Shown here: positions 8,730 to 44,354 of the stretch, piece after piece
How positions within the stretch are numbered: the stretch's first letter is position 1
How the letters are laid out: each line of letters opens with the position of its first letter
Assembly (NCBI RefSeq): GCF_032062105.1
Contig: NW_026928226.1
Span: 248,001-312,000, forward strand
Direction of reading: 5' to 3'
Length of the DNA stretch: 64,000 bases
Source: Saccostrea cucullata
Taxonomy: Eukaryota
Notes under the pieces: generated by a model
What the model was told of the DNA's origin: nothing
What the model saw: the letters and a program-made list of their open reading frames with translations, nothing else
Database searches by the model: none
Translations under genes and position numbers: made by a program

Positions 8730-8864
8730 TTAAGTGTGTTACATTTTTGAAATATTCTTTCATATCTAATTATAGCATTTGGCCAAGGAAGAGTCATGAA
8801 CGCGTTCCAATAATTTTTTCCAATGATTTTGAAACTTTACATTACAGAGTCTCTAAATTCGGAA

Positions 8865-10871
8865 ATGAACCCCAGTACAAGTGCCCAGGATTTAATACGA
8901 TGTGACCAGTGTGAGACTGCTATAGTACAAATGTACTGTGATCTATGTCACGTTAATCTCTGCAAGGCCTGTGTTGGTGAACACATTTCAACTGATGAAA
9001 CCAAAAAACACGAAGTTGTCAAATTTAAGTCAAGAAATTCTACTCTTCTCTACCCTAGATGTGAATCACATGAAAAGGAAAGATGTATGAATTATTGTAA
9101 AAAGTGTGAAATCTCTGTCTGTCCCACTTGCGTCAATAAACATCGCAATCATAAGATATTAAATATATTGGATGTTCAAGAGGAAACAAAAATCATGATA
9201 GAGAAAGAGCGAACTGAATTAAAAGAAACAATCTATCCTACTTACCAGGAAATTTTTTCAGACCTAGAAACGATTCAAAGTGAATTGGAAAAGGAAGCTG
9301 AGGATCTTTTAACAGCCATAACAAAACATGGAGATTACTGGCACTCAGTAATCGACAAACTTGTCGATAGACTAAAAACTGATGTTAGAAAACTGAAAGA
9401 CACAAAGACAGATATATTACAAAGAAAAAAGGATGAAATTAACATGATTATTGTTAATGTAAGAAATGACATTGATTTGTTTGATAAAACTATCGACTCG
9501 AACGACATTTCAGAAACTTTAAGTGTGAAATTAAAAGATCATTATAAAAAACTTCCACCAAAACTAATTTTTTGTAAATCTAAATTCACACCAGCTGAAA
9601 TTCAAGAGGGGAGCATTTTAAAAATGTTCGGAAGTTTAACAGCACATGGTTTCAAAACAGAGAAGAATGGCTACCGAATGAAAACCATACAAGGATCACC
9701 CCAGGATGAATCCATTCAAGTTATCCCAATTAAATCTTCAGAAGAAAGTTCCTTTTCTGATTCCTCTCCAGTTTCCAAGAAAGCACAAAAAACTGAACGC
9801 CTTTTCCCCACCAATCAGCATTTACCAGCAATTGATAACCTTTCTTTAACTGAAGAGAGGGCACCACAAGTTCGATATCGACCTCCAGTCCCTAGAAAAC
9901 CAATTTTCTCTCGTTTGGTCAAACGAAAACCACCAGAATCTGGTTCCCGTACTCAAGTCCCTTTGAAATCAACAGGCTGCAGATTAGGTCATACAGCCTA
10001 TAACGAATTAGTTGAAAATGTACATCATTATTCAGACAAAAAACTGCATAATGAACCGGATATTTTGAGCACAGAAATTATTTATGGTAAGAATATTATA
10101 AATATTGCCTTTCTGGGCAATGAAAAGATATGGCTATGTAAAGGTGAAACTATCATGAAACTGTATAGCATTAATAAAAGTTTTTCGCTGGAGTCGATTA
10201 CAACCAAGTCGGAAAACATCCCAACAGACATAGCGGTGACAGAAAGTGGAAATCTCATGTATACTGATAAGGGGGATGGAACCGTTAATATTGTGAAAGA
10301 AGGAAAAACTCAAGAGTTGATCAGATTACAGAACTGGAGACCTATGAGCTTATCCAGCACTTCTAAAGATGATATTCTGGTTACCATGGAAAATGATGAT
10401 AACAAACAATCAAAAGTTGTCCGATACTCTGGTTACTTAGAAAAACAATCAATTCAGTTTGATGACGATGGTAACCAACTCTTTAACTTTGGTGGATCTC
10501 AAAACTTCATATGTGAGAACAAAAACCTTGATATCTGTGTGGCTGACTGTGGAGTTCAAGCAGTAGTGGTTGTCAATCAAACCGGGAAATTCAGATTCAG
10601 ATACACTGGACACGCTCCTGCTCCAAAGAATAAACCATTCAATCCGGCAGGAATCACAACAGACAGTCAAGGCCACATCCTTACAGCTGATTATGATAAT
10701 TATTGTGTCCATATTATTGACAAGGATGGACGGTTCATACATTTTATAAAGTTTGAACATTTTCAACCTTATAGATTGTGCACAGATAGAGATGACAATC
10801 TTTTTGTTGCTGTCGCAGATTTGAAATCGTGGCCTCCAGGCAGTGTGAAGAAAATCAGATACCTGTACTGA
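8865..10871 (+). CDS. TRIM-like locus B: RING-less B-box/B-box/coiled-coil/NHL-repeat protein, 668 aa, intact
   Basis: Start set at MNPSTSAQD by alignment to the paralog start MDPxxSAQD; acceptor TTACAG ends at 8847; CxxC..CxxC..CxxC..H B-boxes; NHL-type ENKNLDICVAD and PxGITTDSQGHILTAD. Confidence 0.92.
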   Translation: MNPSTSAQDLIRCDQCETAIVQMYCDLCHVNLCKACVGEHISTDETKKHEVVKFKSRNSTLLYPRCESHEKERCMNYCKKCEISVCPTCVNKHRNHKILNILDVQEETKIMIEKERTELKETIYPTYQEIFSDLETIQSELEKEAEDLLTAITKHGDYWHSVIDKLVDRLKTDVRKLKDTKTDILQRKKDEINMIIVNVRNDIDLFDKTIDSNDISETLSVKLKDHYKKLPPKLIFCKSKFTPAEIQEGSILKMFGSLTAHGFKTEKNGYRMKTIQGSPQDESIQVIPIKSSEESSFSDSSPVSKKAQKTERLFPTNQHLPAIDNLSLTEERAPQVRYRPPVPRKPIFSRLVKRKPPESGSRTQVPLKSTGCRLGHTAYNELVENVHHYSDKKLHNEPDILSTEIIYGKNIINIAFLGNEKIWLCKGETIMKLYSINKSFSLESITTKSENIPTDIAVTESGNLMYTDKGDGTVNIVKEGKTQELIRLQNWRPMSLSSTSKDDILVTMENDDNKQSKVVRYSGYLEKQSIQFDDDGNQLFNFGGSQNFICENKNLDICVADCGVQAVVVVNQTGKFRFRYTGHAPAPKNKPFNPAGITTDSQGHILTADYDNYCVHIIDKDGRFIHFIKFEHFQPYRLCTDRDDNLFVAVADLKSWPPGSVKKIRYLY

Positions 10872-16085: not shown

Positions 16086-19000
16086 AAATTTATTCAAATA
16101 TAAGGCAGGATTTTACATTACCCCTAAAACCCAACCTGACTAGGGGGTATGGGATATTATAACATAAATTGCAGTCACTCACCCATACAAACAGATAAAC
16201 ATTCACTCGAAAGACAGTAGAAAAGAGATGGAGAGATAGAAAGGTTACTCTGGTTGTTTTTTATACAAACCATATATACAATAGTTGAACTATAGTTACA
16301 TTTTTTTTTTTAAATAAACATATTTCTAATTAAATATGATTCTATCTATTTATGTTTGGGAATTTTTGCTAGCAAAAACTGAAATTTAAATAGAACAACT
16401 TGAACAAAATAAAGCGTGCATATATTGACATATATTTGCATATTATACACTCATCTCTTCATGTTATTGCAGAAGATTTGATTCAAGGACAAATGCAAAG
16501 ATATAATTATGCTTTTAAACAATATTTCACACTATTAATACATGAGGATACTTCCACATGAATTCCATCTTTTGTGGCCCAGTGGCCATTGAAAAGAATA
16601 TTTTCAAAAGATAATATTTATTTTTCACTTATTTACGATTATCTCTCTTTGAATAAACTTGAATCCCCTTCACCTAAGAATATGTTGAGTCACGTTTTGT
16701 CCGCCGTCACGTTATGTCCGCCGTCACGAAATGTCCGCCTCTTTTTCGGAAAAATCGTCACGTTATGTCCGCCGTCACGAAATGTCCGCCTCTTTTTCGG
16801 AAAAATCGTCACGTTATGTCCGCCGCCACGAAATGTCCGCTTTTTTTCGGATAAATAGTCACACTATGTCCGCCTCTACAACATGTCCGCCGCCAAGAAA
16901 TGTCCGCCCCCCCCCCCCCAAAAAAAATCGTCACACTATTTCTGCCGTCACGAAGTGTCCACCGATCATCCAAAATTGTCTTTTCGTTATGTCTGCCCCA
17001 ACGAAATGTCCGTCAAAGATTGAAAATAGTGTTTATTAATGATAACGGTTTGTCTAATCTAATTTGCTACAAATGATTTCATTGAACTACATTATTTCGA
17101 TCAATAAATGGATATTTGTTTAATTCCTCTTGATTGTTTACGGTATTTGAGAATTTAATGGCATGTTGTTAAAATGCAATTAAAATAAAATAAATAATCG
17201 GGTAAGAATTCTGATCGAATCTTGATTGACGAAATTCGAAGCGGAGAGAGTATTAGCATGTACATATAGGTACAGATTGTACATGTATACATTTCCTAAG
17301 GATTTTCATTATACAACACATGTATGTATAAATTTAATTTCTCACAAATACGAAATTTTTGCTCAGCAGACAAGGATAAAGCACGTTTTTTACTTTTCTA
17401 AAATAAAAGGAAATGCAATTTAGCAAATCTGGATGGGAGATGGGGGTGGTTACACCTCCTTTGGGATATGCTAGAGTGAGTGAAATTCCGAATATTTGTT
17501 GTGTTTTAACACAAGTACCGGTATTTAGCTCGTGATAGGCTACTTATACAATTTATGTATGAAAAAAAAAATCGGTCGTTCAAATAAAATACGCGCCTGC
17601 AATATTGCATGCACTGTTTTAATGTGGCATATTTATAGATTTTTTATGATACTATTTATAACAGATAAAGTTATTTCAGTTTGATGCCTAATAACAGGAA
17701 TATTGTGGTTTGCCGATTAAATCAATATATTTCTTGTTTTAAATACCTAACTAAAATGTTTTGTGTAGATATGACGAGATATGACAAGTTTAGATAAAAG
17801 TTCGAGCAAATATCACTTGAGCCGATATATCCGGGAATTATAAAAAAGAAGTTTTTAGTCATTGTGTATTACATACTATATGTGTATATTTATAGGTATT
17901 ACATATTTATTTTTCATTTACCGGTAAGTTCGGTAAAATAAATGGGCATATACATGTACGTCAGGTGCGACGTTTCTACGTCTGTATTCATAGGAATCTT
18001 TTCGATTTTAAAATTGAATTTCCCTTACAAGGGCTGTTTATTGTCAACTTCTAGGAGCGACTCTTGATGGTCTTGCTTATTGAAAGCAAAAAGAGGACTG
18101 TTCCCGCCCCGTTGAAGTGGGTCTCATCGGAAAGGTAATGTCTGGGAAATTTGACATCTATTCTGATGTAGGTTCTGCCAAGGATTGTCTTCATCTTATT
18201 GTTAACAGTCCTGCGGCGGACATAACGTAACAGTCCTTAACAACCTCGTCACGCTGCAGAGGAAATCGAAATTTTCCTCTAGAAACAATATCTGTGAAGA
18301 AAATCTATGGTTGTCTGCAACTGGGACTCAAGACTTTAATTTGGTCGAAAAGGCTTGTCAGACAGTCAATGACTGTTGACGCCTCGGCTCCACTGGAAAT
18401 GTCGTTTCCCCCTAAGCACATTACGACGATGCCCGGGTTGTACCTCAACATCTTGTAGATGGTATTTGGACAGGGTACCTGTAAAGTGCGAAACGAAAAA
18501 GAAACGAAACGAAATCTACCGAAAAGAAACAAAATCTACCGAAACGAAATCAAGACGAAACGAAACATAATCAAAACAAAACCTGCCGAAACGAAACGAA
18601 ACAAACTATTGAAATCTTCGTTTTTCCCCAAATCAAGGTAATTCATGTATATACTTATATATGTGTAACTGCTTGTGGACTTTTTTTTTACTTCAAATAA
18701 AATTCATATGTAGTTCTTGCACTTGTTAATATAAAATTTGATTACCGAAAAATTATGCTCCCTTGTCAGTCTAATGATGTATTTACAGTCGTTTGGCCAA
18801 TTTCGGATTTTGGCCAGTTCCGAATAATTATTAATTTAAGGACTGATAATTAATAAATTCAACGGTGTAAAAATAAATTGATTTCTATGGTGAGAAGGCT
18901 TACTTATGAGTGTTTGAATTATGTGAAGTTTTGATTTTTTGCCCTCGGTTTGGTTTCGTTATCGTACTTGAAACAGTCGACATACTTTTACAACGCAACA

Positions 19001-19258
19001 AATCTGAATCACCGAGACGCGTAAGTCTGCAGAAAAACCGCTGTGTATACATAAATTTTTCACATAAAACCACGTTCCAGGTCTCAAAAGTAAGTTTTAT
19101 ATGTCCTCTAAAATATGCTAAAAACTTGTCAAAAATAAATATTTAGAACACTGTAAGATATTGAAATATTTTCGTTTTCTTATTTTACCAGTTCCGCATA
19201 CCCATTTTGAACACTATTATAAATTCACTCTTCTTTGTTTTCTTCATTGTAAACGTGA

Positions 19259-19780
19259 CTTTTTATAACCACGCTGGAAAAACAGGAAGAAGGAGTATAT
19301 AGTAATGGAATCTTTGTCCATCCATCCGTCTCTACGTCCGTCCGTCCGTCTAGCTCCGTCTGATATTCTATGGGGTATCCATTTCTTATCCGCAACCCCT
19401 ATTCTACCACTGAATGAAGTTCAATGAGGTTTCACGGAATTTAATAAGTCTTTCACAGAATCTTTGTTTAAGAGAACCAAAGTGCACCTATTTTATTTTT
19501 GGATTAGGCACATAATTTGGCTCCTTGAGAAAAACATGGATACTGTCATTTTTGTAACATTGAAAGGTATATACATCTCTTATCCGCAATTCCTCTTATT
19601 CCACTGAATAAGATTAAATGATACTTTCACAGATTCTTTATTATATTGTGAAATTGTTAACTTTTGATCTGACACTTATTTTGGGTCTTCCAGAGCAAAA
19701 CATGGACTTTGTCATAAATAATCGTAAAAGAGGTGTGGGGTATCATTAAAATGAGCTCAGTGCCCACAGTGCCTCTAGTT
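19259..19780. repeat. Helentron-like non-autonomous repeat with (GTCC)n
   Basis: TTTTATA head, GTCC microsatellite, two TCTTATCCGCAA subunits, terminal CTCTAGTT. Confidence 0.55.
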
Positions 19781-19916
19781 CTCTACAACCTTTGGAAATA
19801 CAAATAATATATTGGTAAACAATTAATTTAACTTTTCTTACTAATAGACATGACAATGGATAACGTCTGGGACGTATATTTTTTAATTTAAGGTTGAATT
19901 GAATAAGAATCTTTAA

Positions 19917-20515
19917 AGCGGCACAGTGAGTCAAAATCATATCGTAATTTTAAGATATCTATAGCATACAGAGAAAGACTTATGAAATAATGAGTATTTA
20001 GCGAATATATGACAATTAAACTGCAAGAATTGACTGCACAATATAAGTGCCGGAAAAATAAAGGTTGTATCTACCGTTTCGTTGTTTCGGTTATGTCAAG
20101 GTCACGCAACTCTTATTTTAAGCTCAAACTTGTAAACAACATTCAACTGGAGCATGCAAAGGTGAGAAATGTATTCTAAAAACTTTTTTAAAAAGATTAA
20201 ATCAATTTTTTTTTGTCTTCTTACATTCATTCGTGGATAACTGAGACCATTGTAACTATGGAAACTTATTTAACACTTTTCTGCGCACGCGTACAATAGG
20301 GAGGAAGAAGTACCAAGGTATTTTGCAATATTTTCGTTCTGGGGCAGACAGAAATTATTTTTACTTTTATTTTTCCCCATAAAAATATCATTTTTAGCTT
20401 CTGAAACATGTAATTTTCTGAAACTGAATACTTTAAGAAATTGAACAAAATTTACAGAGGTCATGCGAAAATTCTACTTTTGTCAATTTTCCCCTTTGTG
20501 CGTCACAGTGCCGCT
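19917..20515. mobile_element. TTAA-flanked MITE (Kolobok/Crypton-like termini)
   Basis: TTAA|AGCGGCACAGTGA...TCACAGTGCCGCT|TTAA. Confidence 0.8.
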
Positions 20516-22281
20516 TTAAGCTATCCGGAACTCGTCGGCTTATTCGTAACTGGTAAAATGGACACTTATGGTAACTTGCGTAATAATTTTTTTGGAGGGA
20601 AGGCCGAACTTTTATGAAACAATATTTAATTCAACAAGTCATCAAACTACCTTGACAAAGCACTTGGATTTTGAAATAATGCCTTGTTTATTTATAGCAC
20701 CGCCGAATCGGTTTCTTATTCAGAACTGGCCAAATAACTGTACATGCTTGCCAGCTGCAAATATGCACGAACGTATGTACTATGCATGTAAAATTTCAAT
20801 ATGTGAACTATTTTCAAATTTTTATGTCTTAAAGTTATTTCCAGCCCTTATTTATATAGATACATGATATCTATCAAAACTGATATGTTACATGTAAAGG
20901 CTCGTTTATGTACGGGTCAAAATAAAGTCACTGTACTGTTGTATGTTGCGAATGTCTTAAAACATAGGATAAACCAGAGATTTCCGAGTATTTAGTACAC
21001 TGTATTTCATTCCGAGATGTCTGGTTTTATAGTTCAATTATACAGGTAACTCCAATCGGAATCGTGTGTATCCTTCCTACGTACAGACGGTCCTATTTTT
21101 CATCGAGGTAAATAAGTGGTAATTATTTAGTGTTATATTAACAAAATTAAGTATGACATAAAGGCAGGGAGGTTTAGACCCTTAGCCCCCCAACCTTTTT
21201 GCAAAGATATATATTAAACAGGCATTAAAAATTGGGGTTTCCCTTTCTGGTTGGTTAAGCCCCCCACCCCACCTCACCCCTGTCAATTTGCTTGCGACGC
21301 CCATGATGCAACATATCTATCAAAACTGAAGTTTTACAGAAACTTACGAGTATTTCAATGCGAGGTGTCTGGGTGGTTTTATCGTTCACTTATACATGCA
21401 ACTCTAACAGCAGTGTGTATCCCATCTACGTTCATACGGCCTTATTTTGTATCGGGGTATTTTTCGAGGGAGAAATGAGTAGTATGCAATGAAAAGGCTC
21501 GACAAAAGACGTCTAAAAGGATTTAATTGACAAGGAAATATTCTCTCAAAACGAATGATGTCAATTTAATGAATGTCAATTATTGATATATTAACAAAAT
21601 ATGAATTTGAATTTTAAGCGAGGGCGCCTGAACTTGAGTTAGGTACCTAGTGTTAAAAACAAGTAGGGTACCCCTTATTCGAAACAATTGCCCTGGTAAA
21701 GAAGCTTACTATATAAATTTCATATGAAGTTTCGTTTCGTTTCTATTTCGTTTCGCACTTTACCGGTACCCAGTTGGACAAGGTTGAGAAGCTGTCATCC
21801 CACCAACTCCAAATCACCCGACTTCAAATGGCAGGACAAAGTCTGTAAAGCTTGAAGCTACCTTCACGTAGGATGAACCGAATGTGACAGCTCTCATGGT
21901 GTCTATGAAATAAAATAACAAAATTACAGTTATAATAAACTCGAGGCAAATTATGTAATTATATAATGATAATCTCTTTTTGACACCTTATAATTAAAAT
22001 GCAATTATCTTATATAAAAATATTTATTATTTATGATTTTTTAAAAAAAATCTTTTGGAAGTTATACTTATTGGGTTATTGGGTTTTGAAATCAATTACC
22101 GTGTTGATAATAAATCGGTAATGTGGTTATAAATTACGCCTAAATATCCTCATCATGAAGTACGCTGGGAGTTCAATAATACTGCTAAACTATCTAATCA
22201 TTATCGCTACTCCTCATTAAAATGTTGCGCGCTTATCAACCTTACATCTCACATCAATAAGACGATTGATTCTCATTACTT

Positions 22282-22613
22282 TGGTGTCCGGGCCATTTGC
22301 ATTAGCACAACATCGCATTCAGATAAACGCACCGTTGCGATAACACACAACACGCTGTCGCGCTAACGCAACTTTGCACATGGAGCAAACACACAACGCG
22401 CCGTCGCGCTAACACAACCTTGCACGGCGCATTGTCCAATGTTGTGTTAGTTCGACGGTGTGTTGTGTGTTGGCGCGTTGTGCAAAGTTGTGTTGGCGCG
22501 ACGGCGTATGGAGCAAAGTTGCATTAGCGCGACAGCGTGTTGAGTGTTAGCGCGATGTCCCGGTCATCTAAACACGATGTCGCGCTAACGCAAATGGCCC
22601 TATTCGGACACCA
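22282..22613. mobile_element. Foldback MITE with internal tandem repeats
   Basis: TGGTGTCCG..GGCCATTTGC / GCAAATGGCC..CGGACACCA; internal GTCGCGCTAACAC units invert about the centre. Confidence 0.85.
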
Positions 22614-23422
22614 TAAATTACCGCTCCATACAGGAATGGGTAATTGATGACGCAGAAACTGAATCCTATATTCTATATATCTATAAATAAATCACAATGT
22701 TTCAAAGAAAGTTTGCAATCTAATTCAGTCTCAAAAATTTCTGTGTTTGGAGATATGATAAACAAAGCCCTCAGTAATGTGTCTTTAAAAGATTATAAGT
22801 GTGGAGAACACCTAACCAAACAAGAAACCTTTTTAAGTGACCAGGGAATACATTTATTATGCTTGACCATGTACGGTTCTTTGTACATAATTATGTAAAG
22901 CGAACTAAAGATGGGCATTGTAGCGATATATGTACTGTTCTTAGAAGAGGGATTAAATAGAATTAAAAAAAAAGGTTAAAATTTAAATTGATTTAACTTA
23001 ACTTCAAATAGATATAAACAGACTTGTCTTACCCTATTTTCCATAATTTTATGTGTTTGGCGAGAATGGTACACTGTAGCTCCAACTGGAAGCTTGTTCA
23101 GGGGAAAGGGGCCTTACCATCATAAACTCTATTCCCTAACCTCCTTATTTAGGGGCGCTGCCATGTTTGGATCACGTGACTTGGCGCCATAAAGGTGCTG
23201 ATAACGCCATAATTCGGTCATATTTTCAATGCAGTAACTTTATTCATCAATTTATTGGCGTAATTTAAATACAAACACGTTTCTTTATTTGGTCTTTTTT
23301 TCTCTTCATTGTTCGTATAATTAAAACATTTAGATCGATTTATTGTTATTTAACTTACTTTTTAAGGCTAAGTTGGTTAAATTTTACCCGTATTTGGGAG
23401 GTTTAATAAATATTACGTCGTG

Positions 23423-23843
23423 CATTGGCGTCGGAAGCAAATTGAATGTGGGGGGGCTAGGTGTTAAAAAAATTTTTTTTTTACCTTCTCAAAAAAACCT
23501 GACAAGCAAAAAAAAAAAAAAGGAAGGAAATGTGAATTTCCCAAACACGAAAATCCTATTTCGTGGGGGGGGGGGGGGGGGGGGGGGGTTGTAAATTCAA
23601 ACTTTTCAGTACCAAAATTTTTTTTTATACACCACCTTTTCACCATTTTTTACCTATACTGCGATATATCTTGGAAAGTGGGGGGGGGGGCTAAACCTAC
23701 GAAGCAATGTTCAATGTCTATACATGTATACATTTGGAAAAAAAGTGGGGGGGGGCTAAGTCAATACTAAGTATATATTTGGGAAAAAAAGTGGGGGGGC
23801 TAAGCCCCCCCTAGCCCCCCCCCCCCCGGTTCCGACGCCTATG
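23423..23843. mobile_element. hAT-like MITE with 5-bp TSD
   Basis: TCGTG|CATTGGCGTCGGAA...TTCCGACGCCTATG|TCGTG; G-run subterminal repeats. Confidence 0.85.
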
Positions 23844-23880
23844 TCGTGTTTGCTTTGAAATCAATTCTATTATTTAAGAT

Positions 23881-24393
23881 TATAGCGAGTGTCGCTCGCG
23901 TAGCGAGCCCAATAGACTAACGTGTACGAACGGAGGATGAAAAGTTCTGTTGACTTAGGACACAAACGCTAGTTTTATAGAAAAGAGATTGCATTAAATC
24001 GTTCTTTTCAGGTACGTTTTAGCCACCATGTGGCTATGCACCGCAACATGTTTTCCAAGTTTCACGGAAGCAACCGACATAACTTCGTCAAAATTCGTAA
24101 GTTTCCGGTGACGTCATTTGTATCATTTCCGAAGGGCAAGGTGAAGGCCGGTGCTGTTGCATGGGGGTATTTTTTTCATAAGATAATTCAAAATCATTTC
24201 GTTAAGATTTCGGTAAAATACAATGTTCCTTTATTTTTTTTTACTATTTTTTATATATTCGCGCAAAGGACATTTGGTAGTGCAGGAATTCTGGGAATGT
24301 TGCACAGAGAAATTTGGCTGGCGTATGTACAGATTTCAATCCGAATTTCCTCTTCTTACACGTTAGTTTATTGAGCTCGCTGCGTTCGCTATA
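23881..24393. mobile_element. MITE
   Basis: TATAGCGA..GCGAGCCCAATAGACTAACGTGTA / TACACGTTAGTTTATTGAGCTCGC..TCGCTATA. Confidence 0.75.
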
Positions 24394-24812
24394 ATGCAAT
24401 CCCCATGCCACAAATCTATTGTTTGCGTTCTAAGTCAATCAACAGGACTTTTTATTTGACGTCATACTTTCAAGTGATAAACAATCGGCAAACCTCGGCT
24501 AACTCCGCTCCGCTCCATTCATGTGCGAGGTACGAGTCATCTGAGGAACTCCGAGTGAGTGAAAAACGGCTCGGGTATTTCCGATTTTGTCGGAAACTTT
24601 TGAAAAGTTCGGAATCTCGATCCCGATGCCTGGAAAATGATGTTTTTTTCTTTATTCTTTTCCTCATTTTTAATGAACTGAGGTTAGACAGTGCAACGAA
24701 CAGCTGTGTAATTTTTTTATAGTAAATAACTGCGCTCGCCCCAACGGTCGCACATATATAGAACATATTAAAAGGCAAAAACTTATATAAGTAAGAATAT
24801 CAGATCTTTTAC

Positions 24813-24817
<5 letters not shown>

Positions 24818-24845
<28 letters not shown>
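24818..24845. repeat. (GA)n microsatellite
   Basis: ~14 GA units. Confidence 0.9.
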
Positions 24846-24848
<3 letters not shown>

Positions 24849-25312
24849 GGTAGTGGTTGGTCTTTTAAAATTATAACAGGTGATTTGTAAATCCGTTTCG
24901 AAAATAAATAGTATGTTGACGGTGCAACCGTTAGAGCGAGCGTAAACTCATCTTTTGTTTTAATTAAGATCGGGTTCGTCAAACCGCTCGTGACGTTAAG
25001 TGCGTATAGACTCTGACGTCATATGACGTTGTATGTGCAATATCAAGAAAAAACCTGAACAATGACGAAAGTTAATGGCGAATGTTTCGTTTACTATTTA
25101 TCTTCAATATGTATCCATTAAATCAAGGCGAGTAAACTTTTTGTTGAACTTTTGCTGTCATTCTCGCGAGAACTTAACTAAAACAAGTGATGCATTGTGG
25201 GTCCAAATTACCGTGTCAAAAATTCTATCGAATGCCAATCTCCCATGCAGAGTTGTCGTTCGTTCCTCTCTCAGACATGTATGAGCCGATGGTAGAGAGT
25301 GATCGAATGCAT

Positions 25313-25823
25313 CAATCTCTCACCAGAGGGCGTTTTACGCTCATCGCTCCAACACCTCTGTTATCGTCTAAATTACAAGAATCTTATCTTGTAAAACAAA
25401 AATAAATTACAGATTTCCACCAACTTGATAATTTTTTTTAATGAAAGTAGTAATATCAATCTGTAGCNNNNNNNNNNNNNNNNNNNNNNNNNNNNNNNNN
25501 NNNNNNNNNNNNNNNNNNNNNNNNNNNNNNNNNNNNNNNNNNNNNNNNNNNNNNNNNNNNNNNNNNNNNNNNNNNNNNNNNNNNNNNNNNNNNNNNNNNN
25601 GGCACTATTTTGTTCTGAATTTATACACATATTTTCAATTTGAAACCAAGGAGACAAAGTCAGGAAATATTTACTACCAGAGAGCTTAAAAAACATCATT
25701 GACAAATTATACAAAAAATCAATGTCTAACAATTTTTGTCGACAAATAATTATTTGACAACCCGCGCTACTTTTTAGACGACAACAGAGGTGTAAGCGGA
25801 GCGCGCCATCTGGTGAGAGATTG
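25313..25823. mobile_element. Mutator(MULE)-like MITE with 10-bp TSD
   Basis: TCGAATGCAT|CAATCTCTCACCAGA...TCTGGTGAGAGATTG|TCGAATGCAT; TIR extends through ACACCTCTGTT.TCGTCTAAA; the centre is an N gap. Confidence 0.8.
25468..25600. other. Assembly gap
   Basis: Run of 133 N. Confidence 1.
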
Positions 25824-27612
25824 TCGAATGCATGTGCAGTAGTTCGAATTTTCTCTTCACACAGGCGTTGCTTTAAGAGCTCGCAACCGAGATACCCCCT
25901 TTCAGGTAAAGACAGGATGTGTATTATACCTTTAATGACACCTGTGATTCTAAAACAATGAAGACCTTTTCAACAGACACCTGGGATTCACACCTTTTGT
26001 TTTACAGCGTGGGAAAATTTTTACCTTTAATTCAAATACAATAAGATTGCATTCAATTCCTGAGTTTCAGGAATTCTGAAATGCGTTCTACGTTCTCTTC
26101 CCATGTATTTTTTTTTTCAAAAAATATATAACTGATTCAATTAATAAATAATTAACCATGTCAGAACTGCTTCTTCTTTTATTCTTAGAGCCAAAAGTTA
26201 CAATTTTAAACAATGATGACGAAAAGATACACCCCCCCCTACCCGAACTAAGGATGCTTAAAACAAGAGTATGCATTGAATAAACTGACAGATGCATCAA
26301 AACAAAGTTTATAAGAAAATGTAACTTAAGTAAGGTATTATTTCGCTCAGAAAAATTATTTTTCAATTTTAGCCCATTTGTATTAAATTTTTATTTTTAC
26401 ATTAAAATGATAACATTATGCCATATATACATGTACGTTATCCTTTACATATAAATACAAGTTGGTTAAAAGTGAAAAGTTGTTTTTTAATTCAGGAAAT
26501 GATATTTAGTTAAGATAAACATGAAGAATGATAAATAGATAGCATTGACGGCTTTGAGAACATTCTGCTTAAAAAGAAATCTGAAAGGACTTTATCTATT
26601 AAAAAATTAGATGATGATAATAGAAATCAATATAAATTCATCATCAATCTGTTTTAATTATTTTACAACATATACGTATGCGGGTATTGTTTGTTTGATA
26701 CTTACCCAATAGTCTTCATTTTTCTTATCAACCGGTCATGTGGCGCAGCAGGGATCAAAGTAAAAACAGATACCTGCCTGCGGCCAGGTGAGACCGCGCA
26801 ACGCATTCCCTCATTGGATGAGGTAAACACGTGATCATTTGAGAATTTAGAGAAGGACAATGTTCAAGTCGGCAAAGCCCTGGGGCCCGTTTTACAAAAG
26901 TACTTACGACAAAGACTAAAAAAATTGAGAACATCATTTCTTAGAAAAAAATTAAAATAATTTTGATATAAAGTTTATTAAAAAATTGAATGTATATCAA
27001 ACGTCTCAATTTTTAAAAAAAAAGTGTTGTCGGACATTACGAGACGATATTTACAATCAGAAATATTGAATGACATTTCTTAAAGGCGGACATTATGTGA
27101 TCAGTGACGAGTTTACCTAGAATAGATGGACATTTCTTGGCGGCGGACGTAATCCGACGATTTGTTTTTTCGGAAGAAAGGCGGACTTTTCTTGTTGGCG
27201 GACAATATTACGAGTTGTTTTAGAAAGAATGCAGGCATTTTGAAGCAGGGAATATAATATTACGATGTGTTTAGAAGAAAGGCGGACATTTTGTAGCGGC
27301 GGACATCGTGTGACGATTTTTCTGAAAAAGAGGCGGACATTTCGTGACGGCAGACATAGTGTGACGATTTTTCTGAAAAAGTGGCGGACATAACGTGACG
27401 ATTTTTCCGAAAAAGAGGCGGACGTTTCGTGACGGCGGACATAACGTGACGGCGGACAAAACGTGACTCAACAGAATACTTTGAGGCAAGTTTGGATGAC
27501 ATTGGCCCAATGCTTCCTGAAAAAATGAAAATGTGATAGGTTTACAGACAACTGACAAATTTTTTTCAGAAAAGATCAGTTGAGCCCTCGGCTCAGGTGA
27601 GCTAAAAACAAA

Positions 27613-29500: not shown

Positions 29501-29812
29501 CATTGGCGTCGGAAGCAAATTGAAAGTGGGGGGAGGCTAAGTGTAAAGAAAAAATGGTACATGTACCTTAAAAAAAAGCCCGACAAGCAAAAAAAAAATG
29601 GCCATTACCCAAACACGAAAATCCTATTTCGTGTGGGTGTCGGTTCGAACTTCAGTACCAAAAATTTGTTTCCAAACAACACCACTTTCCCCATTTTTAA
29701 CCAAAAGAAAGACGTATCTGTGGAAATTGGGGGGGGGGGGGGGCTAAACCTACGAAGATATATTCAATGTCTATATTAAGTATATATAGTCCACCCGGTT
29801 TCGACGCCTATG
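29501..29812. mobile_element. hAT-like MITE with 5-bp TSD (same family as 23423)
   Basis: TGAAC|CATTGGCGTCGGAA...TCGACGCCTATG|TGAAC; shared internal CCCAAACACGAAAATCCTATTTCGTG. Confidence 0.85.
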
Positions 29813-34336: not shown

Positions 34337-35680
34337 TATCATATACCGATTTTCAATTGCTATAACTGGTACTGCACTGTCCTTTTACACAAATTGAAAT
34401 TTAAAAACTGTAATAATTGGCCCTTCTCTCATGTTCGGATAAGGTAATATGGTCTATTATCAATGGTTATTTTCATTATCATATCGATGAATCATATGTT
34501 GATAATGAGCAGTTAACGAACAACTCTGCTCCCATTTTGTATTGTTTTATGGACTTCTGATCTTGAATGCTGCTCATTATCTTAAGATCTTTGTAACGGT
34601 GCAAGTTATATTTGGTTAAAAATCAGTGAATTGTATGTTTGATTCTTTAACCTACCTAAACTCAAAAATTGAGGTTATGCAAAATATTTCTGATCCAAAA
34701 TATAAAGATTTATTCAACATCACAACTTGCATTTACCGGCCATATGCCATATATTTGTTTATTGAGCTTGAATGATTCTATTTTGGGACAGCCTATGATA
34801 AATCAGAATATAAGGTCGGCTAGACTTAGGAGTTCCCCCTTTTTAAAAGATTAACATTGTTTTTTGAAGATATAAATCTCCAATAATGAGCTCATAACAC
34901 ATGTTGGATTCTTTTTTATACTTATGCATGTTAAAGCATGAATATGTACTTAAACCTTTTTTATAATATTTATATGTACATACTCTGTTAGCAGTGATTC
35001 ACTTTCAAAATATGAGGAACGGCAATTAAATGTAAAAAAAAAATATTCAATTATTTCAATCAACAAAGGTAATATTTTATACAACATTTATAACTTATGC
35101 ACTGCTAACGTTAGGAACAGTAAGATAAAGATATTGATCGAAGAGTAGAGCACAAACATTCGCCTTGGTTTGTAGATAATGATAATACAAGTAGGTCGTA
35201 CGACTGAACACCGAGTAATTTGGATTTCTGTTGGCTAGAACAGCTGCCATTTTCCACTAGAAAGCAGGTAACAGTTTTTCATCACATTATCTACCAATTA
35301 ACTTTTATCTCCAAATAATTTTTTTTTTTTCAAAACAAGAGAATGATATTTTCCTTTTCCCTTAGAAATGTGTAGTTCTGCACAAAATTTCAATGTATTC
35401 ATAAACACTTTTGAGATCATGCAATTGTTGCCATGACATGTACATGCGAACTTGCAATTAAAGAAAGTCACTTTCACTATTTTACAATATTATCAAGATT
35501 AGCAGGAAATACGCTATTGCATTCCATGCTGTTAAGTTAACAAAAAGAGGAAAATATGAAATACTTATATAAAATTATCTCATCAATTCATTACCTCATC
35601 AATTCATAAAAATCACATACAATTTATAAGTTGATCTACAAAACTGCTATTTACCACTTTTAGAGGCCAAAGGTCTAGTC

Positions 35681-37465
35681 ATGGACCCCCGTGCAAGTGC
35701 CCAGCACGTGATACACTGTGACATATGTGAGACTGTTAAAGTACAGATGCACTGTGACACGTGTCTCGTAATCCTGTGCAAGGCCTGTGTGGGAGAACAC
35801 ATCTCTACCGATGAATCCAAGGATCATAAAGTGGTCAAATATGAAATGAGGAATTCCACTCCCCTTTACCCCGAATGTGCCTCTCATGGAAAAGAACGAT
35901 GTGAGATGTTCTGTAGAAACTGTGACAATTCCGTCTGTGGCAGTTGCCTCTCATCTGATAAACATATGAGCCATAAATTATCAAAAGTCGTAGAAGTTCT
36001 GGATGAAAAGAAAGATAAGATAAACAAATACAAATCTCAGTTAAATGAACACGTTAATCCCAAATACCTGGAGATGGAATCTGATATACAAAACAAAATA
36101 AGTGAGTTAGAAAAGGAATATGAAAAACTCTTAACCTCTATAACAAGTCAGGGAGAGGTCTTGCAAAGAGAAATCAACAAACTTGTCAATCAACTTAAAA
36201 ACCAGGTTGATGAAATGAAAAGATCGCAGTTACAAACTTTACAGAAAATTCTTGATGAAATTAACAAGAAAATTATTGATATAAGAGATGAAATCAATGT
36301 ATTAGATATTGCAAAAGACTCAAATGACTTTTCAAAAATCTTCAGCTTACAAGTCTCTATAGAACAACATAAAAACTTTCCAAAAATACCTATTTTGTCT
36401 GCCCCAAACTTTACACCGAAAGTTATCCAAGAAGACGAACTTTGTTCTCTCTTTGGAAATTTCTCTTCAATTCCTCTTAAATCAAAACAATTTGGAAACA
36501 TTCCGGAAACAACGAAAGAAATCTCACTTAAATCACATAAGAAAAGTCCCCCTCATGCAGTTAAACAGGGATCAGTAAAAGTTTCTCTTCCGTATAAAAA
36601 GCTGCGTAATGAACCAGAGATTTTCGACAAGCGCATTTATCATTATGGCTACCTTCGAAATATTGCATGTTTTGGAGATGAAAAAATATGGGCCTGTGAT
36701 GAAAGCTGTACCATGACACTCTACAGCATAAATCAGGGTTTAATCAAGTCAATCAGAACAAGGACAATAAACAGGAGCCCAACAGACATAGCAGTGACAA
36801 GAAATGGAGAGCTAGTGTATACAGATCAATGGGAGAGAACTATTAACATTGTGAAGAGTGGAACTAAAGAAGAAGTGATAAGAGTAGAAAAATGGAAACC
36901 TCTAGGTGTCTGTAGAACCTCCTCCAGCGACCTTCTCTTTACTATGGAAAGTGATGATAAACAGTCCAAAGTTGCCCGGTACTCTGATTCAACAGAGAAA
37001 CAATCCATTCAGTTCGATGATAAAAAGGCACCTCTTTATTCATCGGATGGTTCTCATAAATTTATATGTGAGAACAGGAACCTTGATATCTGTGTGGCTG
37101 ACTGTGGAGCTAAAGCAGTAGTGGTGGTCAATCAGGCCGGGAAACTGAGATTCAAATATTCTGGACAAGCTCCTCTTCCAAGGTATAGAGCATTCAATCC
37201 AAGAGGAATCACTAGAGACAGTCAAAGTCACATCCTCACGACTGATTATGATAATAACTGTGTCCATATAATAAGCGAGAATGGACAGTTTCGTCGTTAC
37301 CTAAATTTACCATTTATGCTCTTGGTGGGTTGTGTACAAATACAGATGACACTCTGTTTCTTATTGCTTGGAAATATTTCTTCAGTCTGTCAAGCTCTCT
37401 TGAGAAAATCAAATACCTGCATTAACCGACATTGGTCACTTACCGGACAATTTGTTCAGAAATAG
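35681..37465 (+). CDS. TRIM-like locus D: B-box/coiled-coil/NHL protein with a late frameshift (594-aa ORF; ancestral stop 37423-37425)
   Basis: Full paralog alignment to ~37305; the conserved tail GLCTNTDDTLF...KIKYLH* continues in another frame. Confidence 0.85.
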   Translation: MDPRASAQHVIHCDICETVKVQMHCDTCLVILCKACVGEHISTDESKDHKVVKYEMRNSTPLYPECASHGKERCEMFCRNCDNSVCGSCLSSDKHMSHKLSKVVEVLDEKKDKINKYKSQLNEHVNPKYLEMESDIQNKISELEKEYEKLLTSITSQGEVLQREINKLVNQLKNQVDEMKRSQLQTLQKILDEINKKIIDIRDEINVLDIAKDSNDFSKIFSLQVSIEQHKNFPKIPILSAPNFTPKVIQEDELCSLFGNFSSIPLKSKQFGNIPETTKEISLKSHKKSPPHAVKQGSVKVSLPYKKLRNEPEIFDKRIYHYGYLRNIACFGDEKIWACDESCTMTLYSINQGLIKSIRTRTINRSPTDIAVTRNGELVYTDQWERTINIVKSGTKEEVIRVEKWKPLGVCRTSSSDLLFTMESDDKQSKVARYSDSTEKQSIQFDDKKAPLYSSDGSHKFICENRNLDICVADCGAKAVVVVNQAGKLRFKYSGQAPLPRYRAFNPRGITRDSQSHILTTDYDNNCVHIISENGQFRRYLNLPFMLLVGCVQIQMTLCFLLLGNISSVCQALLRKSNTCINRHWSLTGQFVQK

Positions 37466-40043: not shown

Positions 40044-41872
40044 AACTCTAACATATTTCATATTTTGCAATCCTTTTGAATCCCATTATTGTTATCTGAA
40101 TACTGGAATTCTGAAGTTTGTAGAATATACTATTAGTTCCTGTACACATACTTCAGGGTTTATTCTTTATATCGATTTTGATATAATGAATGAAAATAAG
40201 TTGTTACTATGAAGATCATTTGTAGAAGAGAATTCTATGAGGGGTATTCAAAATCAAAAAGTTCGCAAAGTAATTGAATAACAGCCATAAAAGAAATGAA
40301 ATTAAGTTTCAGTATTCATTATTTTTAAGGTAGCTTTCTCCTATTTTATTGCCAATCTGTCATTTTTCTGCTCATGCACGAATCACTTGATCCAGGCGTT
40401 CACGTGAGATGTTCCGTAGCTTTCTGTTTACAAAAGCTGAATGATTTTTTTCTGAGTTGTAAAATTTGAGATTAATATTTTTTAAATCATACAAAAAAAT
40501 ATTTCTTGAAAGAAATTTTAGCTGAATTCTTATATATTTTAAAAATATTATTGATCTTCGAATCTTCAGCAATGCCACTGAGAGTGTTAATTTTGTTATA
40601 TACCCCTGGTTAATTTTTTGCCAGGAGAAATCAGTTAGTGAGACTATATGATTAGCAATATAATAGTGCATATAAAAACTTTCTCTTTTCTAGACTCCAA
40701 ATTCACCCTTATCACCTCTTTCTAAAAGATACACAATTAACTTTTGTCAGGCCTCATGTTGAATATTTTGTTTGCTTAAGTTGCTTGGAATTTTTAGTGG
40801 AAATGAATTTTTTGAAATGATTTGATTTAATTAGAATGTTTTTGTAGTTTTCAAAAGCATTCCCCAGTTTTAGGTAGATTCTGACTCAGAAAATTAGTCT
40901 TGAACCTATAAGTATAGCTAAAAATTTTAAAGTTTTGGACTGGACATATCAAATCTATGAAATCGATTAAACTTGATCATGTTTGAGTAAGGTGTTACGC
41001 CTTGACGCTTGTATCCAAGGCTGAAAGCATTACACAGTTCTGATAATTTTTTATACCTTTTTATTCTTCCATTATTGTTTGAAAATGTATTCATTTCATA
41101 ACAAGGAATACAAAATATCAGGCTGAAAGCTTTTGCTTCTACCCAATTTTCGATCTCGACTAAGTCTGTATTTGTAAATTTACCGAACAGGATCGATTTC
41201 CTGTAACAACAAACAGAACGGTTTTGTTTCTTTGAAATGGATAAAAATATTGAACGCAAACCATTGAACAAAAGAATGATCAAATGTTTGAATGTTACCA
41301 AAAAAAGAGACACTATGACTTAATTTTAATCTGTAAAGATAACATTTAGATGTAAAACTTGACATTGCACCGATTAAAATTAAATTCTTGCTTTGTTGTA
41401 AATGACAGTTCAAATATATTTTGTCCACCATGCTTCATTAATTTTAACTCCTTTTTTTCTCTCCATTTTATTATTTGAATTATATAGTACAAACGTATTA
41501 GAATTTTTTTAATATTGAAAATAATATGTATATCTTTCATCCTTTATAATCTAAAAAATGTCATGGTAGACTGTGTGGAATAAATGGTCTGAAATGTTGA
41601 TTTTTGTAGTCTCTTTCTGATTGCAGTACTGTCTTGCATTTTTGGTAGTTTGCCTTCACATTAAGGTTATTTTGAAAATAACTAACTCTATAAATGCTAC
41701 ATATATTGATTCAATCTTGAAAATCTAAAGTAAAAAGAACAAAAAAAAAAACATTTCTAAAACAAGAAACCAACAGTTTACAGTCTCTGGCCAGCAGAAT
41801 TTAAAGATGATTCTCTTTTCAATTACCGGTATTTATCAACGTTAAATCATTTTGTTTCAATTTCAGTTAGGC

Positions 41873-44354
41873 ATGGACCCGAATACTAGTTCCCAGGATG
41901 TAATACGATGTGACTTGTGTGAGACAGCTATAGTATATATGTACTGTAATACATGCCTCAATAACTTGTGCAAAACCTGTGTGGGAGAACACATTGCAAC
42001 TGATGAATTGAAAGATCACAGAGTGCTCAAATTTGAGTCTAGAAATTCGACTCCATTCTACCCTACATGTAAATGTGCTTTCCATGAAATAGAACGATGT
42101 GAGATGTACTGTAGACACTGTGACATTCCTGTGTGTAACACTTGCCTGGCATCCGATCAACATCTCGGTCATAGATTATCGAAAATCTTACAAGTTATGG
42201 GGGAAAAGAAAGAAATGATAAAAATGCAGCGAAACCAATTAAATGAAACCATTTACCCAACATATCAACATATTGCAACTGATGTTCAAAATAGAATACT
42301 AGTAAGTGAACTGGAAAAGAAATATAAAGAGATCTCAGAAGCCATCACGAAACGTGGACATTACTGGCACAGTAAAGTTGATAAAGTTGTGAAGAAACTT
42401 AAATCCCAACTTGATGAAATAAAGAAATCTCAGTTAAAAACTATGCAAAAACATTTGAATGAAATCAACAAGAAAATTATGGACATTAAAGATGACATTG
42501 ATTTATTTGATGCATGCATTGCTGAACACACCAATGACATTGCGAGATTAATAAGTGTAACACCAAAGACGGATCAATATCAGAAGCTTCCACAAAAACT
42601 TGTACCCTCACTACCTCAATTCATTCCAAATACTATTCAAGACGAAACATTAAGTCATCAATTAGGAAGCATATCACCATTTTCATTTATATCAGAAGAG
42701 TATGGTTACATATTCAAACCAAGGCAAGAAATGCAAAAAGCCGGTTCCTCTCGGTTAACTAAAACGAAATCACCAGATGTTGTATTCCATCAGGTTTACA
42801 TCGATATTTTCTTACAAATAATCCTCAAAATATTTCCTGTCTTGGTGATGATAAATTGTGGATATGTGATGAAAGCAATATTATTGAACTTTACGTTGTA
42901 AAAGATCATATACAAGACCGGTTTATCAAAACGAAGGCAAGGACCATACCAGAAGACATAGCAGTGTTAAGAAGCGAAGACTTAGTTTATACTGATGGCT
43001 TGTATAAAACAATAAACATCGTTAAGAATGACGAGATACAGGAGTTGATCAGACTTCAGTACTGGAAACCATCACGAAACGTGGACATTACTGGCACAGT
43101 AAAGTTGATAAAGTTGTGAAGAAACTTAAATCCCAACTTGATGAAATAAAGAAATCTCAGTTAAAAACTATGCAAAAACATTTGAATGAAATCAACAAGA
43201 AAATTATGGACATTAAAGATGACATTGATTTATTTGATGCATGCATTGCTGAACACACCAATGACATTGCGAGATTAATAAGTGTAACACCAAAGACGGA
43301 TCAATATCAGAAGCTTCCACAAAAACTTGTACCCTCACTACCTCAATTCATTCCAAATACTATTCAAGACGAAACATTAAGTTATCAATTAGGAAGCATA
43401 TCACCATTTTCATTTATATCAGAAGAGTATGGTTACATATTCAAACCAAGGCAAGAAATGCAAAAAGCCGGTTCCTCTCGGTTAACTAAAACGAAATCAC
43501 CAGATGTTGTATTCCATCAGGTTTACATCGATATTTTCCATCTTACAAATAATCCTCAAAATATTTCCTGTCTTGGTGATGATAAATTGTGGATATGTGA
43601 TGAAAGCAATATTATTGAACTTTACGTTGTAAAAGATCATATACAAGACCGGTTTATCAAAACGAAGGCAAGGACCATACCAGAAGACATAGCAGTGTTA
43701 AGAAGCGAAGACTTAGTTTATACTGATGGCTTGTATAAAACAATAAACATCGTTAAGAATGACGAGATACAGGAGTTGATCAGACTTCAGTACTGGAAAC
43801 CTCGTTATGTCTGCAGCACTTTCTCTGTTGACATTCTGGTTACTATGGGAAGTGATGACAACAAACAAACAAAAGTTGTTCGATACACTGACTTCACAGA
43901 AAATCAAACCATTCAATTTGATGATGAGGGTAAACCACTATATTCCTCTGGTGGTCCTAGGCGATACATGAACATATGTGAAAATAGGAATCTGGATGTA
44001 TGTGTAGCTGACTATCACGCTAAAGCAATAGTGGTGGTCAATCGGGCCGGGAAACTGAGATTCAGATATATTGGACATACTCCTGCTCCTAGGAATAAAC
44101 CATTTTGTCCACAAGGAATCACTACAGACAGTGAGAGTCACATCCTTACAACTGATTATGATAATCGATGTGTCCATATCATTGACAAAGATGGACAGTT
44201 TCTTCATTATCTGATCCTTGGAAAGAATAAACCGTATAGAATCTGTATAGATAATGTTGACAATCTTTTCGTTATTTCCAAAGAAAAAGACAAAGAGAGG
44301 GACGAATGGTATTGCACTCACAGTTGTGTTATGAAAATCAAATATATGTGGTGA
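41873..44354 (+). pseudogene. TRIM-like locus E with an internal tandem duplication (42344-43070 / 43071-43801); 584-aa intact ORF if the first copy is removed
   Basis: ORF-track pieces 41852-42901, 42856-43119 and 43116-44354 are explained by a 727/731-bp duplication and a 4-bp deletion in copy 1. Confidence 0.85.

Follow-up and report, generated by a model that had tools for sequence, protein, structure and literature searches.

The 10.8-kb element at positions 16683..27473 of the 64,000-nucleotide stretch of Saccostrea cucullata DNA analysed here (contig NW_026928226.1; hereafter the window) is a single insertion with TGT...ACA ends in which an SGNH esterase gene is broken and a transposase is missing. 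Very probably it derives by internal deletion from the Saccostrea counterpart of the Repbase transposon Ginger2-1_CGi and was moved by the integrase of another copy. An earlier description made from the letters alone (the sequence-only reading) had proposed a non-autonomous, cargo-carrying element moved by an integrase-like DDE enzyme, with Ginger as a lead, of unclear superfamily and possibly of an undescribed family. The view of a non-autonomous element served by an integrase-like DDE enzyme is supported. The Ginger lead was borne out through the integrase that accompanies the SGNH gene in oysters, and this internal gene ties the element to the Ginger2-1_CGi transposase, in place of an unclear superfamily or an undescribed family. 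The description as cargo-carrying was not upheld, since SGNH is a second gene of the whole family and a large share of the 10.8 kb consists of elements nested there later.

The element starts at 16683 with TGTTGAGTCACG and ends at 27473 with CGTGACTCAACA. Its arms (16683-16773 and 27383-27473) are complementary at 99% over 91 nt, and TGTTG at either terminus matches the TGTNR pattern of Ginger. Both terminal inverted repeats (TIRs) are arrays of a 17-bp site, which matched 21 times in the window at ≤3 mismatches, 10 times in the left array, 10 times in the right and once in the interior, where chance would give 0.08. The sites lie on a 17-bp lattice, with 3 in tandem at each tip, then A/T-rich 17-bp spacers between them and decay inward; beyond position 91 the order of sites diverges between the two ends. 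The flanks carry the same 5-mer, GAATA, for which an exact match by chance has a probability of ~0.002. These results agree with the sequence-only reading on the inverted TGT...ACA termini, the 5-bp target-site duplication (TSD) and the inwardly decaying subterminal arrays, of which 20 terminal sites were recovered at ≤3 mismatches. A solo long terminal repeat (LTR) of an LTR retrotransposon was ruled out by the long arrayed inverted ends 10.8 kb apart. The end patterns of the element were found neither in viral contigs nor in metagenomes, and bacterial genomes yielded 2 single coding-like matches, without arrays and chance-like.

The insertion site was examined in assembled contigs of public runs. 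In 3 of 4 runs, 25-37 contigs depart from the window at 16682, and 27 of 30 positions in their consensus agree with the sequence that follows the right TSD. Because other copies of this high-copy repeat continue as an empty site predicts, we conclude that a single insertion event interrupted it, and the earlier claim that the host repeat rejoins once the element is removed is confirmed by these copies; inside the 64-kb window there is no second copy of the repeat. The host repeat is a candidate Cg170-type Helentron. Elements of the Cg170 type are described in the available text of PMC7492417. The repeat borders a decayed B-box/NHL (TRIM-like) gene copy from 27613 onward.

The SGNH gene inside the element is a pseudogene on the minus strand, in three pieces with 85-93% identity to S. 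cucullata proteins, and is broken by two in-frame stops, one frameshift and one 3.3-kb nested element (Table 1). At the frameshift (18215-18231), a net 17-nt insertion duplicates 10 nt from further downstream and makes the coding DNA match the terminal site at 16/17 positions; this may be the trace of a repair partly templated from the ends, or chance. That this internal 17-mer marks a genuine inner end was rejected, as the half of it that is conserved is ordinary SGNH coding sequence. Nested elements recognisable in the interior total at least 4.6 kb, and very deep bins at 23.7-26.0 kb suggest further nested sequence. Pfam, protein matches and nested ends thus support the SGNH gene and nested transposons reported earlier for the interior; for the six other open reading frames (ORFs) within the element, Pfam gave nothing above noise. 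Judging by the near-perfect outer sites, either the copy moved after decay of the esterase had begun or the tips have been kept uniform.

That no transposase is visible, as first stated from the sequence alone, was borne out by searches of the window for integrase remnants with 16 relatives in tblastn (best E 0.09) and with a profile of 13 relatives in hmmsearch (best E 0.2), while the SGNH control in the same search gave E 1e-51. With no integrase trace in the window, the copy is therefore most likely an internal-deletion derivative. The interior is multi-copy: six bins free of nested repeats had 13-34 times the depth of the right flank in run X1 and 12-21 times in run X3 (same sample as X1), with contig depth in public runs not equivalent to copy number, and the repeat-free depth was even on both sides of the assembly gap.

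The SGNH gene points to the missing enzyme. It is multi-copy in oyster annotations, and 3 of the 5 RefSeq SGNH loci listed have LOC numbers that differ by 1-3 from that of an integrase locus on a contig of equal length (LOC133187149/150, LOC128172091/094 and LOC128169363/365), a pairing based on accession numbers and on protein clusters represented by the best 15 of 17 and best 15 of 27 members. A freshly captured host gene was rejected as an origin for SGNH. Two gene models of M. gigas contain both genes in one protein. The start of P0005, 74% identical over 46 aa to the N-terminus of an S. cucullata rve integrase (P0028), is fused to SGNH, and in P0016 SGNH is preceded by the last 67 residues of the integrase (82% over 67 aa to P0033). 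In the chimeras P0004 and P0005 the start of the integrase runs into the inner part of SGNH at two different junctions, which suggests deletion copies elsewhere in the family.

At full length the partner is a protein of 932-954 residues. It contains an rve and an OTU domain (OTU E 4e-8 in P0196), a segment rich in Cys and, at the C-terminus, an F-box-like region, the last a lead from Pfam (E 0.002 in one relative) and atlas scores of 0.90-0.91. Past this motif, residues 820-954 of P0196 form a conserved domain without a Pfam match and with atlas neighbours that are all unnamed. Among 41 proteins, D114 and E212 of the catalytic triad are invariant and D177 nearly so, giving D-D(35)-E. In the structure model (mean pLDDT 76), residues 1-382 resemble prototype foamy virus (PFV) and Ty3 integrases, matching the PFV intasome at E 3e-19 and Z 21.6 (root-mean-square deviation 8.5, 348 aligned), and residues 459-614 resemble OTUD3; by sequence, the closest solved relative is again PFV integrase (E 4e-22). 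The listed fold matches, which were retroviral/Ty3 integrases and OTU domains, included no TnsB/MuA-type transposase. An atlas search of the partner returned only generic integrase and KRBA2-like clusters, integrase and SGNH queries from oysters found no loci in viral contigs, and prokaryotic matches to the partner were weak (best E 3e-15, in 5 of 64 parts of the genome collection) and mostly to bacterial insertion sequences (IS).

Comparison with catalogued families linked the partner to a Repbase Ginger2 entry. The 113-aa core of M. gigas P0209 is, by eye, Ginger2-1_CGi in the available part of the PMC10045372 supplement, and the Saccostrea integrase is identical to that core at 99 of 113 positions (78% over the whole protein). 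Because the core reads as Ginger2-1_CGi, the partner transposase is already catalogued. The identity is that of the partner and not of the window DNA: the M. gigas integrase linked to SGNH has the same core as the Repbase element, which is known here from its core alignment row alone, whereas in the window copy the transposase is absent, SGNH has decayed and other elements are nested. The match to a classified family that the sequence-only reading had named as fatal to its view thus exists in substance, at the level of the transposase core. In the same supplement, Ginger2-2_CySi reads the same as our locus L065, and by motif 6 of at least 24 Ginger2 rows fall in the group of the oyster integrase; by motif, 0 of the 8 Ginger2 rows named in a table of PMC2836005 do so.

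According to the available text of PMC2836005, Ginger2/Tdd elements have TGTNR termini, TIRs, an integrase-type DDE enzyme preceded by an H2C2 zinc finger and no reverse transcriptase, with TSDs of 4 bp in RTATAY in animals and of 5 bp in TDD-4/5; the available part of PMC10045372 gives 4 or 5 bp. The element shares the TGTNR termini and TIRs, and its 5-bp TSD fits the broad range but not the animal 4-bp RTATAY rule. The integrase-type enzyme that the family requires is absent from the window copy and present in its putative autonomous partners. The OTU and F-box-like regions, the SGNH gene and the hydrophobic N-terminus of the oyster lineage are not reported for Ginger2 in that portion of PMC2836005. 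Ginger1, as described there, shares the TGTNR ends and a C-terminal OTU (or Ulp1) domain on its transposase (in oysters OTU, on the partner only), but differs in its 4-bp CCGG/CCGT TSDs against GAATA, in its H2C2, YPYY and GPY/F motifs and, by the Repbase rows, in its core motifs. Polinton/Maverick integrases have a core without HHCC (PMC10045372, available part) and a first-Asp motif similar to that of the oyster integrase; these elements have AG...CT-type ends and 6-bp TSDs in contrast to TGT ends and 5 bp, and their polymerase and capsid genes were not seen in the window or in the complete relatives L048 and L065, which are too short. IS3EU/GingerRoot elements are likewise integrase-related TIR elements in oysters, in which gene fragments are possible, but they have TA...TA ends, 6-bp TSDs and another core (PMC6839031 and PMC10045372, available parts).

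Relatives of the partner amount to 602 at E 1e-10, not all of them in the group of the oyster integrase, and were found in marine-animal-like contigs. Several bacterial metagenome-assembled genomes of GTDB also include animal-like contigs with Gypsy and Ginger (L011, L012, L014, L016 and L017; 108 integrase matches in G004), which is host contamination. In a tree of 49 cores drawn from 148 rows (24 of the group, 12 canonical Ginger2, 8 Polinton-like and 5 Gypsy, long branches left out), the group forms a single branch (100/99) whose sister is canonical Ginger2 (95/87); labels were assigned by motif and later found consistent by eye with Repbase rows, the tree itself containing no TDD or Repbase sequences. 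Grouping with Polinton-like (p-AU 0.155) or Gypsy (p 0.114) integrases was not rejected. An earlier, larger tree with IS outgroups was set aside after the long outgroup branch fell inside the group. The H2C2 motif was scored in 0 rows of the group and in canonical rows such as L013, L086, L108 and L121.

Relatives within the group have comparable ends. L048, L065 and the L043/L047/L067 family lie inside TGT...ACA ends made of short arrays, and a 24.3-kb element in G001:C232 (9823-34116), with TIRs of 313 bp and the 5-mer GCACC duplicated, encodes an integrase of the same group whose gene contains introns; a second copy of the element is without the integrase part. In the flanks of 11 insertions, 8 have G at position -5 and 7 have C at -1, a G-N3-C bias with the symmetry of a 5-bp stagger. 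This element also holds nested hAT-like, helicase-bearing TIR and Gypsy elements, labelled from their ORFs. No further complete element of the group was found in G003 or in other G001 contigs, and the end patterns of coral relatives had no match in viral or genome contigs. Of 8 canonical-type elements with both ends, 5 have 4-bp duplications, 2 have 5 bp and 1 has none, and canonical Ginger2 L017 likewise has arrayed ends. Because canonical elements show both, neither 5 bp nor arrays alone are unique to the group. Two canonical H2C2-bearing elements from soil metagenomes (L086:8997-11898 and L101:9044-11814) carry 5-bp duplications, and their close relatives 4 bp.

An unexpected property of these enzymes is a signal-peptide-like start. 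Among 36 non-redundant transposases with long N-termini, 18 have a strongly hydrophobic stretch within the first 36 residues, compared with 2 of 434 control windows elsewhere in the same proteins; the 36 were chosen for a Met start 150-205 residues ahead of the first catalytic Asp, which favours extended N-termini, and signal-peptide-like here denotes a hydrophobicity count and not the output of a predictor. Examples are P0029, P0032, P0039, P0042, P0048, L046:1466, L051:2070 and L057:1257. Counted from the first Met, 0 of 20 canonical Ginger2 and Polinton-like ORFs, many of them truncated, start in this way. Intron T-tracts were rejected as the source, since the L046, L051 and L057 starts follow in-frame stops and their DNA is not T-rich. 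P0005 gives a hydrophobic start for the oyster family, where the annotated full-length proteins start further down. Conservation of such a start is unexpected on a DNA transposase because the enzyme must reach the nucleus. It is conceivable, and in our judgement unlikely, that the bivalve Ginger2 of Repbase is a separate superfamily-level lineage of marine-animal DNA transposons, marked by the lack of H2C2, 5-bp G-N3-C targets, a tail of OTU and F-box-like regions and arrayed ends, whose full-length enzyme enters the secretory pathway by a working signal peptide, while translation from a start further down yields a shorter form for the nucleus; such a transposon would throttle itself by mis-routing its enzyme, or export it.

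Besides the limit on depth given above, several observations weigh against the identification of the element as a Ginger2-1_CGi derivative. The partner has no H2C2 finger, a part of the 2010 definition of Ginger2/Tdd in the available text of PMC2836005. Only 2 of 4 elements with both ends (this one or its relatives) have a 5-bp duplication; L065 has none at its contig ends, and the single flank base of L048 fits 3 or 5. The test of target bias in the 11 insertions was post hoc and uncorrected. None of 139 loci from other organisms has the SGNH gene, which therefore looks specific to the oyster family. For the 2 SGNH loci of S. cucullata, none of the 7 integrase loci listed is a neighbour by number, and it is the SGNH gene and accession numbers, rather than DNA, that link the ends with the integrase. 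Finally, no sequence analysed carries the 17-bp ends together with the integrase, and no contig among those listed bridges the left end and the SGNH gene.

The last two points, together with the several nested insertions already in the element, would suit an improbable alternative in which an unrelated TGT-ended element, with another transposase, received a separate Ginger2-1-like copy of which SGNH is what is left. The surroundings of SGNH, however, show no second set of ends or duplication, depth is level across 16988-18169 and equal to that at 26050-26837, and the outer ends share their pattern and array build with relatives of the integrase linked to SGNH. We give little credence to a complete window copy with its integrase gene inside the assembly gap. 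On the minus strand the gap lies upstream of SGNH, as expected for such a gene, and 133 N does not fix the size of the gap; yet a nested foldback repeat surrounds it with its arms, and other contigs skip 441 nt there, neither end of the 2.9-kb integrase gene was found beside it by hmmsearch (best E 0.2), and P0004 and P0005 have differing junctions, as deletion copies would.

Tn7-like ends have TGT, a 5-bp duplication and asymmetric arrays of binding sites, which the ends of the element resemble. Service by a Mu/Tn7-type (TnsB-like) transposase, a group that to our knowledge is not known in animals, is nevertheless highly improbable: the two-site pattern gave 2 single chance-like matches in bacterial genomes and none in metagenomes, the prokaryotic matches to the partner are weak in the part scanned (best E 3e-15), ordinary Ginger2 ends have arrays, and the fold matches of the partner are retroviral/Ty3 integrases. 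The Mu/Tn7 parallel drawn in the sequence-only reading thus applies to the architecture of the arrays, a feature that canonical Ginger2 also has, and not to the PFV/Ty3-like enzyme. It is equally hard to credit that the two ends come from different copies mis-scaffolded across the gap, which no listed contig bridges in a high-copy host repeat, given the same 5-mer in both flanks, the rejoining of the flanks at precisely the base that the other copies of the repeat predict, and the need for two independent insertions at one repeat base, unlikely without strict targeting, of which relatives show none.

For the preferred reading, an internal-deletion copy of the Saccostrea counterpart of Ginger2-1_CGi, we propose that the partner integrase, supplied in trans, would bind the 17-bp arrays and pair the ends, cut at the terminal CA and join the ends to the target with a 5-bp stagger, from which host repair would produce the duplication. 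The full element would read left end, SGNH, integrase and right end in the window orientation, with both genes on the minus strand; in the window copy the integrase gene was probably deleted, and other transposons would have filled the interior later. The predicted OTU and F-box-like domains may act on ubiquitin signalling during transposition. The excision mechanism of Ginger is left open in the available text of PMC2836005, and the 17-bp arrays offer a defined substrate for asking how an integrase, normally restricted to insertion, excises an element.

The locus itself, a dead derivative of a catalogued family, has little significance. Some novelty persists at the level of the sublineage, in its separate branch, absence of H2C2, 5-bp duplications with a G-N3-C bias and hydrophobic starts. 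We found no published description of the sublineage traits; the ends, the TSD and the SGNH gene may be on record in Repbase entries already. The name Ginger2 spans two well-separated groups, one of which fails the original rule of finger and TSD, and the arrayed ends are a diagnostic structure for annotating oyster repeats.

Table 1. Coordinates of the element, its interior and neighbouring reading frames in the window
Feature	Position	Strand	Remarks
Left target-site duplication	16678..16682	+	5 bp, GAATA
Left TIR	16683..17014	+	TGT end; 14 sites of 17-mer (≤4 mismatches); decay inward
SGNH piece, residues 119-173 (DxxH block)	18054..18218	-	89-93% identity to P0001/P0007
Internal 17-mer match at SGNH frameshift	18215..18231	-	16/17; net 17-nt insertion relative to intact homologues, by eye
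SGNH piece, residues ~40-115 (GGND block)	18245..18472	-	one stop; Pfam Lipase_GDSL_2 E 1e-4; 86% identity
Nested 3.3-kb TIR element splitting SGNH gene	18473..21771	.	9-bp duplication, one mismatch; MULE-like (label inferred)
TTAA-flanked element inside nested 3.3-kb element	19913..20519	.	contig joints skip 607-609 nt
SGNH piece, residues 1-41 (GSS block)	21775..21897	-	one stop; 85% identity
Foldback repeat, probably nested	22270..22615	.	
Small nested TIR repeat	23423..23845	.	second copy at 29501-29775
Nested foldback repeat, arms around gap	25300..25835	.	contig joint 25353-25795
Assembly gap	25468..25600	.	133 N; no bridging contig among contigs listed
Right TIR	27029..27473	-	ACA end; 13 sites of 17-mer (≤4 mismatches)
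Right target-site duplication	27474..27478	+	5 bp, GAATA
Rest of interrupted high-copy host repeat, to its end	27479..27608	+	loose contig ends at 16682 and 27608
B-box/NHL (TRIM-like) ORFs	8814-10868, 35630-37462, 41846-44351, 61638-63461		

The element lies within a cluster of B-box/NHL (TRIM-like) genes that extends over 4000-63500 of the window. Inside one of these genes, a tandem duplication of ~730 bp (42338-43801) is 99% identical and possibly an assembly artefact. Between a second pair of inverted repeats (49081-60959; 210 bp at 89%, separated by 11.9 kb) lie a Harbinger-type transposase (53007-54044, DDE_Tnp_4) and a Myb/SANT ORF (54696-55439), together with TRIM-like fragments and a 478-aa ORF without a Pfam match.

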